Shown here: piece by piece, positions 33,601 to 36,600 of the stretch
How positions within the stretch are numbered: position 1 is the stretch's first letter
Layout of the letters: each line of letters begins with the position of its first letter
NCBI GenBank assembly: GCA_013239625.1
Contig: MU053881.1
Coordinates: 15,740,373-15,804,372 of the forward strand
Length of the DNA: 64,000 nt
Direction: 5' to 3'
Origin: Lama guanicoe
Lineage: Eukaryota
Program-made: the position numbers and the translations under genes
The notes under the pieces: model-generated
Database searches by the model: none
The model's input: the letters and a program-made list of their open reading frames with translations, nothing else
Told to the model about the DNA's origin: nothing

Positions 33601-36600
33601 AGAGGGAAAGAGCCTTGCAGAGGAGGCCAGTGAGCAGGTTACACCCTGGGCAACTGGGGGCTCAATCCTGCTGGGGACCTTAGGGGACAGTGTAGAGCAC
33701 ACACTTGAGAGTGTCCCACCCTAGGGATGACCCTGGGGCACCTTTGTATTCTTCACCAGATGAGGGTTCCCTAGGTGGTAACTCTAGCCAGCCCAGTGGG
33801 TGTGCCCTCAGGCTCCTGTGGCTAGAACCAAGCCCTCAGTCTTGTCCAAGGTGTCCACTGCAGGCAGCCAGGAGCCTGTGGCAGTGCCTGTTCTTGGCAT
33901 GCCTTGCTCCGTGAGCCCACATCTGTATTTGTCTTGTGTGTCTTCCAGTGGTCTGTGCCCAGGGTTTGCAAGCAAAGGACAAGACGGGATCCAGTGACCC
34001 CTATGTCACCGTCCAGGTTGGGAAGACCAAGAAACGGACAAAAACCATCTATGGAAACCTGAACCCTGTGTGGGAGGAGAACTTCCACTTGTAAGTGTCT
34101 GACTGGACCCCCAGCCGCCCATGTGGAGCTGCTTGTTGGGGCAGCTGAAAGGGGGGCTTCAAGACTAGCCTGTGCCAGCCTGACCCCGGCCTCCACCTTC
34201 TCTTCCCCCCTGCAGTGAATGTCACAACTCCTCGGACCGAATCAAGGTGCGCGTCTGGGATGAGGACGATGACATCAAATCTCGTGTGAAGCAGCGGTTC
34301 AAGAGGGAATCTGATGACTTCCTGGGGCAGACGATCATCGAGGTGCGGACACTCAGTGGCGAAATGGACGTGTGGTACAACCTGGGTGAGCAAGTGTGGG
34401 GTTCTGCAGGGAGGAGGGGAGGGGGCCCCGGGGAGTCAGCCAAAGGGGAGAGCTCAGCTAAAGGGGAGAGACACAGTGTCAGGAAGGGTCAGTCTAGGAG
34501 CCCAGTCTAATGGAGGACGCAGAGTCTGTGGGCCTCAGTCTAACGAGGGAGGCAGAGTCTGAGTCCAGTCTGACAGGGGCAGGAAGCATGCAGACTGAGA
34601 GGGTGAGCAGAACCCAGGGACCTCTTCGTTCAGTTTGGGAGAGTGAGGGAAGGACAGAATCTCCATATTCCATTCTGATGGAGGAGGGAGAATATTAGTC
34701 TAAGGGGAGAGGCATAGACCCAGGAATCCAACCTAAAAGGAAGATTGAACTTTGAGAATCTGGCGTAAGAGGGGAGGTACAGATTGGAATTCTTAATCTG
34801 AGAGGGCAGCTATAGACCAAAGGACCCTCTCTAAGAAGATGAGTAGCATCCGTGAGCCCAATCTGATGGGGGAGGAGGGATCTGTGAGCTCAATCTAAAG
34901 GCATAGGGAGAACCCAGTCTCAAAGGGATGAGACGCGTCCAGAAAATTCTTATTTGGTTAGAGGAAATCTAGATATCCCATTCTGATGGGGGAAGCAAGA
35001 AGCAAGACGCAGGGATCCCAGTCTGAGGAAAGAGGCATAGCCCCAGGAATCCTGAAAAGTTAAGTAGATTCTAAGGAGCTTGATCTGATGAGGAAGGCAG
35101 GGCCTGGGAGCACAGCCTGAGGGAGAAGCAAGGCCTAGGGCTCCTAGTCTACAGAGGGAGACACAGACCAGGAATCTACTCTGAGTGAGGAAGTGAGGTC
35201 TGGGATCCTAGTTACAAGGGAGAGACAGGACCTAAGGATCCTAGTTCAGTGGGAGAAACACAAGTCTAGGGAGCCAGTCTGAGGAGGAACATGTAGGCCC
35301 TAATTCAGGGAGTCTGGGAGGGCTACAGTCATGCATATGCTAACATAACCTGGGGCTATATTGGGAAATTCTGACACTGTCATCCCTTCCTGCCCTGCAG
35401 ACAAGAGGACTGACAAATCTGCTGTGTCAGGGGCCATCCGGCTACACATCAGTGTGGAGATCAAAGGCGAGGAGAAGGTGGCCCCCTACCATGTCCAGTA
35501 TACCTGTCTGCATGAGGTGAGGCTTACTGATCCACCCTGCCTTCGAAGCTCATCTTCGTCTCCCACGTTGTTTCCACCTACCATTCCTGCCTGCCCTAAC
35601 TCCTTTCTCTTTCTAACCACACTGTCCACACTCCCCTGGGCCTCTGAGACTGTGCCCTATGCCATTCTCTCTGCTCAGAAAATTCCTCACCATCAATCAG
35701 GGTCCAGCTTCAGGGTTCCTTCCTCTGGGAAGCTCTCTCTGACCTCCAGGCAGACTCTCACTATCGAGCTCCAGATCTTCCATATGTCCCAGCACTAAAT
35801 GCTAAGGGTTGGGTTGTTTGTGCCTGGGTTTGTCTCTTCCACCCACCTGGGGGCTCCTGGAGAGAACTCAGTTTGCTGAATGAATAAATGATTGAATGGA
35901 TGAGTGAGTATTGAATGGATAAAAGAATGGGTGGACAGATGGAAAGATAGGTGAATAGATGTGTGGTTGAACTATTGGAAGTACAGATGTATTGGATGGG
36001 TGAATTTTGGGGTAGTTGGATAGATGGATGGGTGAATAGATGGATCGACAGATAGATGATGGTTGGAAGGATGGGTGGATGGTTAGGCAATGAGGAGGAT
36101 ATAGCTCAAGTGGTAGAGTACATGCTTAGCATGCATAAGGTTATGGGTTCAACCCCAGCACCTCCATTTTTAAAAAATGATGGTTGGGTAGATAGATAGG
36201 TGCTGGATTTCTACCTAGATAGATAAGTGATGGATGGTTCAATGGGTTGATAAATTATTGGATGGACATATTAAGCTATGGGTAGTAGATAGATTGATGT
36301 ACAGTTGAGTTACTAGGAGGAAGGATGACTGGGTAGGTGAATCTGGGAGTAGCTGGATGGGTGGGTAGGTAGGTGGGTAGATGGATGGATGGATGCATGG
36401 AAGAAAGATCAGAAAGACAGATGGATCCATGGGTGAATGGATGGAGGGAAGGGTGAGTGAATGGACTGATGGATGGGTGGGTAGATGGATGTGTGGTTGA
36501 ACTATTGGAAGTATAGATGTGGATGGGAGAATTTGGAGGTAGTTGGATAGGTAGATGGGTGGGTAGATGCATGGGCACATGGGTGATGGATGGGCAGATT

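Follow-up and report, generated by a model that had tools for sequence, protein, structure and literature searches.

Known Cryptic Exons of UNC13A and STMN2

The closest described system is the cryptic exon (CE) of human UNC13A, located between exons 20 and 21, which is repressed by TDP-43 and has a length of 128 or 178 nt (Ma et al. 2022, PMC8891019; Brown et al. 2022, PMC8891020). Ma et al. list human forms of 128, 178, and 431 bp. Brown et al. take UGNNUG as the footprint of TDP-43, and their iCLIP crosslinks are distributed across a UG-rich region of about 800 nt in the human intron. The human UNC13A papers also give the position and alleles of the risk SNP rs12973192, and a length polymorphism of GATG units, rs56041637, is described for the human intron. 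Besides the disease-associated forms, a stop-containing cerebellar exon of 35 bp, which uses the human long acceptor, is mentioned in Brown et al. 2022 (PMC8891020; Methods and the legend of Extended Data Fig. 10).

Two other systems are relevant to the present locus. Intron 1 of mouse Unc13a contains a TDP-43-dependent poison exon (bioRxiv 10.64898/2026.09.11.751031), i.e., an exon of the same gene in a non-primate. Exon 2a of STMN2 is a TDP-43-repressed cryptic last exon leading to premature polyadenylation (PMC8891020).

In papers on human UNC13A, the CE is called primate-only or "not conserved in mouse". An earlier sequence-only reading of this DNA had noted that the CE is usually described as poorly conserved outside primates, and Ma et al. 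do say so: the CE is "only conserved in primates", as judged from a 30-species track with 27 primates. The primate-only statement rests on an alignment of 27 primates and three other mammals. In the literature as far as its text was accessible, we found no description of the UNC13A CE or of the 35-bp exon outside primates.

The element analyzed here shares gene, intron, and order of landmarks with the human CE. The mouse exon, in contrast, belongs to another intron, is non-homologous, and was shown experimentally, whereas the element of the window is known from sequence alone. The locus resembles STMN2 exon 2a in having an acceptor, a poly(A) signal, and UG-rich surroundings; unlike the signal of STMN2, the AATAAA of intron 20 is a candidate recognized by its motif.

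Gene Context of the Candidate Exon

The window, i.e., the whole 64-kb stretch of DNA that was analyzed, contains a nearly complete UNC13A gene; all features described below are on its + strand unless stated otherwise. Among 18 named proteins compared, the UNC13A protein of the window was closest to those of ruminants, with 1134 of 1230 residues identical versus 1113 of 1230 for human. In the variable exon of UNC13A, the corresponding values were 165/189 and 148/189. The window is thus laurasiatherian.

Exon 20 (human numbering), located at 35401..35516 by tblastn of UNC13A proteins and junction refinement, ends in phase 0 (..CAT GAG|gtgagg), and the "exon 20" primer of Brown et al. matches it in 24 of 27 bases at 35402-35428. 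Exon 21 (37178..37341), also placed by junction refinement, is identical to rat Munc13-1 (PDB 5ue8) at 41 of 41 positions; its first bases, 37178-37182, coincide with the last five bases of the CE-exon 21 junction primer of Ma et al. Intron 20, which separates these exons and contains the candidate CE, is 1661 nt long (35517..37177), with GT at 35517 and AG at 37176-37177, and the joined translation agrees with the reference at 23 of 23 positions. A search with the exon 21 peptide against metagenome contigs retrieved 80 loci with a best protein identity of 91%, none of which was a mammalian UNC13A.

Homology to the Human Cryptic Exon

The positional ortholog of the human 178-nt long CE was placed by primer mapping and ORF alignment at 35793..35950 and is 158 nt long. 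We regard its homology to the human CE as solid on the basis of these alignments. The comparison with human was made through published primers (about 77 nt) and translated ORFs, which together cover all but roughly 25 nt of the human exon.

Three published human CE primers map to 35890-35943 in colinear order and without gaps, with 43 of 54 columns identical. For two of them, the highest-scoring ungapped match of the intron lies at the colinear place (20/25 and 19/24); the third matches better at five other places of the repeat, and some human primers, when aligned locally, favor 36879-36910 over the colinear place. The 3' half of the CE is repeat-like, and its orthology rests on colinearity. 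In the primer alignment, the column of the risk SNP rs12973192 (base 16 counted back from the end of the human CE) falls at 35926, where the window has A. The CE reverse primer of Brown et al., in the orientation as printed, aligns with 35856-35869 and 35870-35878 (21 of 23 bases identical), separated by a 15-nt gap in the window. These 15 nt, missing at 35870 by comparison with two primate-type sequences, are also absent from a related ORF, P0124; apart from them, about 14 nt of the human sequence are absent from the window.

The 5' half was compared through a human-type read-through ORF, P0123, which contains the exact translation of the CE reverse primer of Brown et al. Its alignment with window positions 35738-35851 comprised 18 identical residues of 38 (E = 3e-10), so that identity over the first 50 nt of the CE was measured through amino acids only. 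In P0123, the distances to the long and the short cut are 253 and 303 nt, respectively; they agree with the 128, 178, and 431 bp forms of Ma et al., and P0123 therefore has the human geometry. The two acceptor places are 50 nt apart in both the window and the human-type ORF with no indel between them, and the order of landmarks is kept from exon 20 to the donor. In the genome from which the window comes, the unique part of the CE ortholog has a single copy. The resemblance to the human CE that the sequence-only reading had proposed is thus borne out by the primer columns and the P0123 alignment, and all coordinates given there proved correct when read directly from the sequence.

Other searches were negative within their scope. 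The + strand frame-2 ORF at 35648-35884 yielded no candidate in a protein search, and HMMER with the minus-strand ORF at 35764-36105 gave 0 hits against 1.84 billion representatives. A primer-derived string did not occur in any of the 11 supplement files of Brown et al. (out of 18) that the search covered; two such strings were found in full-text search in Brown et al. only, and no full human CE was found in print.

Splice Sites

Splice sites were scored with a provisional position weight matrix (PWM), for which no more than 20 real sites of the gene served as calibration. The ortholog of the long-CE acceptor AG of human is intact at 35791..35792 (cccag|CAC), as had been read earlier, and lies 276 nt into the intron versus 253 nt in the human-type ORF. 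Its PWM score was 4.6, and only one of 20 real acceptors of the gene was weaker. Four upstream AGs (35679, 35750, 35754, and 35775) outscored it. Since exon 20 ends in phase 0, an exon starting at 35793 would open with CAC TAA (35793-35798), a premature stop in the spliced frame that, as in human, comes early after the long acceptor; the immediate stop claimed by the earlier reading is indeed there.

Where human has the short-CE acceptor, the source of the major 128-nt form, the window has AC (35841..35842), again in agreement with the earlier reading. The dinucleotide follows ttgtctcttcc, i.e., the pyrimidine tract is kept. The window codons ctc ttc cac (CLFH) correspond to ..CLFQ or ..CLLQ in primate-type ORFs, 303 nt into the intron. 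This comparison shows a loss of the short acceptor, with CAC in the window in place of the primate CAG.

At the donor side, the AA noted earlier for the human donor position is what an ungapped alignment gives (35943-35944), and only such an alignment. With a gap, the probable donor lies 8 nt further on, at 35951, shifted by two extra 4-nt GATR units compared with human (aaag atag, 35943..35950). The sequence GTGAATAG following these units matches the human donor octamer in 6 of 8 bases versus only 2 of 8 at the colinear place; for this reason, we take GTGAAT at 35951..35956 (TAG|GTGAAT) to be the probable ortholog of the human donor G|GTGAGT, with a weaker base at +5. By the same alignment, the human donor was probably not lost. 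The PWM score of this site was 7.0, with 10 of 20 real donors of the gene being weaker. A second donor-like site, TGA|GTGAGT at 35904..35909, is lineage-specific and has no counterpart in human: it arises from an A-to-G difference at 35904 (G in the window, A in the human-type primer), and its score was 5.0 (4 of 20 real donors weaker). Both donors had been named in the sequence-only reading, together with the exon lengths of 111 nt (35793-35903) and 158 nt (35793-35950), which are right. Stronger donors are located further downstream, e.g., at 36452 with a score of 9.5.

A candidate poison exon of 35 nt (35793..35827), likewise opening with CAC TAA at the long acceptor, has GT as the next two bases (35828-35829; tgg|gtttgt). 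The acceptor place, the stop inside, and a GT exactly 35 nt on reproduce the layout of the human 35-bp cerebellar exon; the candidate of the window differs in that both of its splice sites score weak and in being recognized by layout. Its donor score of 0.8 was below those of all 20 real donors of the gene. The corresponding residues of the primate-type ORFs are W|VC, encoded by TGG|GTN.

UG-Rich Region and Predicted TDP-43 Binding

A degenerate repeat region, delimited by motif density and repeat families, occupies 35877..37075. It is rich in G, T, and A, poor in C (4.7% C), and dense in UGNNUG: 63.4 motifs per kb versus 9.5 per kb window-wide (6.7 times), or 76 motifs observed versus 13.5 +/- 3.8 in shuffles. 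All of the five densest 400-nt UGNNUG windows of the 64 kb are within this region. As in human, it begins inside the CE and continues downstream; UGNNUG and UGAAUG motifs within and just downstream of the candidate exon are located at 35877, 35893, 35912, and 35928. By analogy with the human intron, 35877-37075 is likely a TDP-43 binding platform. In a further difference from the human CE, a tRNA-derived SINE is inserted in the UG-rich region (36095..36166; Rfam tRNA match, 30.3 bits); at least 4123 candidate copies of it were counted in the genome to which the window belongs.

A single AATAAA is present in the intron, at 35883..35888 inside the CE ortholog, exactly where the sequence-only reading had noted it. 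The hexamer occurs 27 times on the + strand of the window, or 0.42 per kb.

Age and Significance of the Element

Because the window is laurasiatherian, the homologous element predates primates, as the sequence-only reading had proposed. The alignments show that the CE sequence and the long acceptor are older than primates, and the octamer comparison indicates that the CE donor is probably older as well. The account of the origin of the CE, a leading drug target in ALS/FTD, changes accordingly: an acceptor region and a UG-rich repeat were already in place before primates, whose main distinctions are a second acceptor and a stronger donor. Two questions arise: could certain non-primate mammals serve as partial models of the human event, and is the conserved element in fact the 35-nt cerebellar exon, which has received little notice? 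The practical value of the finding, which derives entirely from sequence, is modest.

Interpretation of the Element

On balance, we favor the interpretation of 35793-35950 as a positional ortholog of the CE that would be mostly silent intronic sequence, with a UG-rich region bound by TDP-43 and with a capacity to form an exon below that of human. The segment goes back to an ancestor shared by primates and laurasiatherians and combines roughly 85 nt of unique intron with the first units of a long, degenerate UG-rich repeat. Its splice signals are kept only in part: the long AG is present and weak, the short acceptor is destroyed by a change from CAG to CAC, and the donor was probably shifted and changed from GTGAGT to GTGAAT. 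The segment is most likely ordinary intron sequence that is normally spliced out, and we infer from the human analogy that TDP-43 would bind the UG-rich region as it does in human. After TDP-43 loss, the capacity to form a poison exon would be lower than in human. Any exon included would extend from 35793 either to 35950, with a length of 158 nt, or to 35903, with a length of 111 nt; translation would stop at its codon 2 (CAC TAA). Use of the CE ortholog as an exon in this species is speculative.

We consider it rather unlikely that a species-specific poison exon repressed by TDP-43 exists here, in which 35793 or a stronger upstream AG would be joined to 35951 or 35904 and the resulting stop would lead to nonsense-mediated decay as in human. 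An AG acceptor, an in-frame stop, and two donors scoring 7.0 and 5.0, within the range of the real donors of the gene, are all available, and the four UGNNUG/UGAAUG motifs at 35877, 35893, 35912, and 35928 adjoin a 1.2-kb UGNNUG-dense region; moreover, species-specific Unc13a cryptic exons exist, as the intron 1 exon of mouse illustrates. However, the acceptor behind the dominant human form is missing, the one that remains (4.6) exceeds a single real acceptor out of 20 and is outscored by the AGs at 35679, 35750, 35754, and 35775, and the orthologous donor lacks G at +5. The stronger donors downstream (36452 at 9.5 and others) additionally make the splicing outcome not predictable.

About equally doubtful is the proposal that selection kept the 35-nt poison exon (35793-35827) and not the disease exon, which in human would be a by-product. 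According to it, the shared long acceptor is the one used in normal human cerebellum, and this older acceptor happens to adjoin a UG-rich repeat full of donor-like sites. The layout of AG, CAC TAA, and GT exactly 35 nt past the acceptor argues for this proposal, as does W|VC (TGG|GTN) in both primate-type ORFs over 50 nt without indel. In the human-type 35 nt, codon 2 is the only codon able to be a stop, as deduced from the translation of P0123, and two further mammalian ORFs (P0122 and P0125) stop one codon past ..SQ, like the window. On the other hand, the donor at 0.8 is weaker than any real donor and the acceptor is weak too. Between the acceptors, 9 of 16 codons are identical in the window and P0123, compared with 43 of 87 in the upstream intron, which is no clear excess of conservation, and the AG and GT of other species are read through amino acids, not nucleotides.

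A more specific form of this proposal, which we hold to be less likely still, is that the acceptor, the codon-2 stop, and the GT 35 nt on are common to primates and a laurasiatherian because they constitute an old physiological poison exon of UNC13A tuning the dosage of Munc13-1; the disease exon would then have arisen by coupling to a strong donor in the TDP-43-bound repeat. If this were true, non-primates that keep the acceptor and the donor could show a weaker UNC13A mis-splicing on TDP-43 loss.

Formation of a cryptic last exon upon TDP-43 loss, with the acceptor at 35793 and cleavage after the AATAAA at 35883 as in STMN2 exon 2a, is highly improbable. The hexamer is unique in the intron and lies 90 nt past the acceptor, with G/U-rich sequence after it; nevertheless, with 27 occurrences on the strand and its location here within a TGAATGAA-type repeat, chance is enough to explain it, and in the available text of Ma et al. 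and Brown et al., no premature polyadenylation event in human UNC13A is reported.

The least probable explanation, namely a chance likeness of low-complexity GGAT/GAAT-rich sequence to the human CE with no orthology, would account for the repeat-like 3' half, for the primer matching better at five other places, and for the local alignments favoring 36879-36910, but was rejected as contradicted by the P0123 alignment of the unique 5' half, by primer mapping, and by the geometry of the acceptor places and landmarks, with the unique part being single-copy in the genome.

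Gene Context and Lineage of the Intron

UNC13A is nearly whole in the window, on the + strand, with exon pieces located by tblastn with the full-length protein from 10.6 kb to 59.3 kb. The intron in question is 1661 nt in length and lies between an exon ending at 35516 (+ strand, ..CAT GAG|gtgagg) and an exon starting at 37178 (+ strand), the latter 41/41 identical to rat Munc13-1 (PDB 5ue8); the joined translation agreed with the reference at 23/23 residues. The "exon 20" primer of Brown et al. matched 24/27 nt at 35402–35428; by human numbering, the intron is therefore intron 20. 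For lineage, 19 exon pieces were set against 18 named UNC13A proteins. Ruminant UNC13A was closest to the window (1134/1230 residues; 165/189 in the variable exon), followed by whale and bats, and then by human and other primates (human 1113/1230; variable exon 148/189). Thus, the window is laurasiatherian and not primate.

Homology to the Human Cryptic Exon

The human TDP-43-repressed cryptic exon (CE) was represented by translated ORFs and by primers published in the available parts of Ma et al. (Supplementary Table 6 and Methods, PMC8891019) and Brown et al. (sections 22 and 34, PMC8891020), about 25 nt of the exon lying outside both. Three primers, which together tile the final 53 nt of the human CE and one base of the intron, aligned at 35890–35943 in order and ungapped (43/54 columns identical). 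For two primers, the best ungapped match in the whole intron was at the colinear place (20/25 and 19/24); the third, composed of GATG-type units, had five better places elsewhere in the intron. The CE "reverse" primer of Brown et al. fits the + strand in its printed orientation, at 35856–35869 and 35870–35878 (21/23 identical), 15 nt of the alignment being absent from the window between 35869 and 35870. In the available text, section 22 thus prints a sense oligonucleotide as "reverse primer within the CE", and the two "UNC13A-specific primers" of section 34 are reverse complements of one another.

The exon 20 frame runs on without a stop through 276 nt (92 codons) of intron 20, until the candidate exon's own TAA closes it; the open frame covers 35349–35798 (+). 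Such a frame leads gene callers to predict "proteins" from the same read-through in the contigs of other mammals, and a search with the window's read-through ORF returned several of these. The pyrimidine richness of the stretch may account for the open frame. Retention of this intron part is one human mis-splicing product, the 431-bp form, according to the available text of Ma et al. (PMC8891019).

Two of the ORFs, P0121 and the human-type P0123, are primate-type; both have 84 intron codons to the long acceptor and then continue. P0123 has the human geometry: its long-acceptor cut lies 253 nt past the exon end and its short-acceptor cut 303 nt past it, in agreement with the 178, 128, and 431 bp forms reported in the accessible part of PMC8891019; P0121 has the same geometry. 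P0123 includes the exact translation of the CE primer of Brown et al. and shares 18/38 residues with window positions 35738–35851 read in a noncoding frame (E = 3e-10). P0123 and the window align indel-free across the 50 nt separating the two acceptors, and the window's genome contains one copy of the region's unique part. Two further ORF searches from the region (+ strand frame 2, 35648–35884; minus strand, 35764–36105) returned zero candidates.

Chance resemblance is excluded by the primer colinearity, the P0123 match, the indel-free 50 nt, and the single copy; therefore, the element predates primates. The comparison supports the region as a non-primate counterpart of the human UNC13A CE, and both the homology and the pre-primate age proposed in the sequence-only reading are borne out. 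We failed to find a description of the UNC13A CE outside primates in the available parts of the literature on the exon.

UG-Rich Repeat of Intron 20

Positions 35877–37075 form a degenerate repeat, built of GGATGG-type units together with longer sub-repeats and containing only 4.7% C. UGNNUG occurs in it at 63.4 per kb vs. 9.5 per kb window-wide (76 observed vs. 13.5 ± 3.8 in shuffles), and the five 400-nt windows densest in this motif in the 64 kb all lie inside it. The candidate exon contains three copies of UGAAUG; in the source material available, GAAUG-containing oligonucleotides serve as ligands of the TDP-43 RRMs. The recognition of GAAUG as a TDP-43 ligand is reportedly due to Lukavsky et al. 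in 2013. According to the available text of Brown et al. (PMC8891020), UGNNUG is the TDP-43 footprint, TDP-43 crosslinks in human intron 20 across an approximately 800-nt UG-rich region with both risk SNPs, and mutation of the UGNNUG motif beside the CE SNP raises human CE inclusion.

A primer located about 300 nt 3' of the human CE matched the repeat unit at 36670–36693 (22/24), which indicates that the repeat itself is common to human and the window. A paralogous unit at 36878–36910 (+) is closer to the 3' end of the human CE for some primers (16/18, 17/18) than the orthologous place; it carries TGG|GTGAGT at 36882 and a second ...GAGAGATGG at 36910. This resemblance makes the 3' half of the CE a member of the repeat family. 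A tRNA-derived SINE (36095–36166, +; Rfam tRNA match, 30.3 bits), with at least 4123 candidate copies in the window's genome, is inserted in the repeat.

Splice Signals and Possible Exons

The long acceptor AG is kept (35791–35792). The CAG of the short acceptor corresponds to the final Q of ..L F Q or ..L L Q in the primate-type ORFs, whereas the window has ..ctc ttc cac there; thus, the AG was lost and the pyrimidine tract kept. On the donor side, after AAAAG, human-type primers have four 4-nt units and then G|GTGAGT, and the window has the same four units, two more (aaag atag, 35943–35950), and then g|gtgaat. Identity to the human donor octamer is 6/8 at 35951 vs. 2/8 at the colinear place, and unit slippage is known in human UNC13A intron 20 (rs56041637; available text of PMC8891019 and PMC8891020). 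On these grounds we read 35951 as probably the orthologous CE donor, weakened at +5. Position 35904 is G in the window but A in the human-type primer, and by this comparison the GTGAGT there is lineage-specific. The column of risk SNP rs12973192 is 35926, where the window has A.

The sequence-only reading had placed all these signals correctly (AG at 35791–35792 followed by CAC TAA, AC at 35841–35842, GTGAGT at 35904, GTGAAT at 35951, AATAAA at 35883, AA at 35943–35944), along with the 111- and 158-nt exon lengths, the intact long acceptor, and the lost short one. Its AA at the colinear human donor place also stands, but its treatment of 35951 as another donor probably does not.

Sites were scored with a consensus matrix that was calibrated against 20 real donor and 20 real acceptor sites of the gene itself. 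The acceptor at 35793 scored 4.6 (1/20 real acceptors weaker), and the donors with exon ends at 35950 and 35903 scored 7.0 and 5.0 (10/20 and 4/20 real donors weaker, respectively). Upstream, four AGs outscore 35793 (35679, 35750, 35754, and 35775), and further into the repeat lie several donors with better scores as well (e.g., 36452, 9.5); no single exon is therefore picked out by sequence alone. We favor, with some confidence, inherited intron sequence with partly decayed splice signals that would normally be spliced out, probably lying under the putative TDP-43-bound repeat, and with a lower poison-exon capacity than in human. That the species has its own candidate TDP-43-sensitive exon in the 35793–35950 region, as had been suggested, appears doubtful.

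The conserved acceptor AG, stop, and GT could instead belong to a small 35-nt exon (35793–35827), comparable with the 35-bp stop-containing cerebellar exon that Brown et al. describe at the human long acceptor. It begins with CAC TAA and is followed by GT (tgg|gtttgt); both primate-type ORFs have W|VC, i.e., TGG|GTN, at this place. Judging from the P0123 translation, the sole possible stop in the human 35 nt would be codon 2, and two more mammalian ORFs (P0122 and P0125) stop one codon past ..SQ, like the window. However, its donor (exon end 35827) scored 0.8 with the consensus matrix, under every real donor of the gene (0/20 weaker), its acceptor is the weak one at 35793, and amino-acid identity to P0123 is 9/16 over the 16 codons between the two acceptors vs. 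43/87 in the upstream intron, with no clear excess. Use of this exon is unlikely, though compatible with a TDP-43-sensitive exon of the species' own. Cryptic polyadenylation at the intron's sole AATAAA (35883) is highly improbable.

Other Motif-Rich Regions of the Window

A second intronic region rich in TG, UGNNUG, and TGAATG lies at 40800–41700 (+), between an exon end at 40677 and an exon start at 41710, with maxima of 25 UGNNUG and 5 TGAATG per 400 nt; TDP-43 might also bind UNC13A there. GTGTG peaks in the window at 60100–60800 (+), downstream of the last coding exon, with as many as 15 per 400 nt; this stretch is possibly a 3'-UTR GT repeat.
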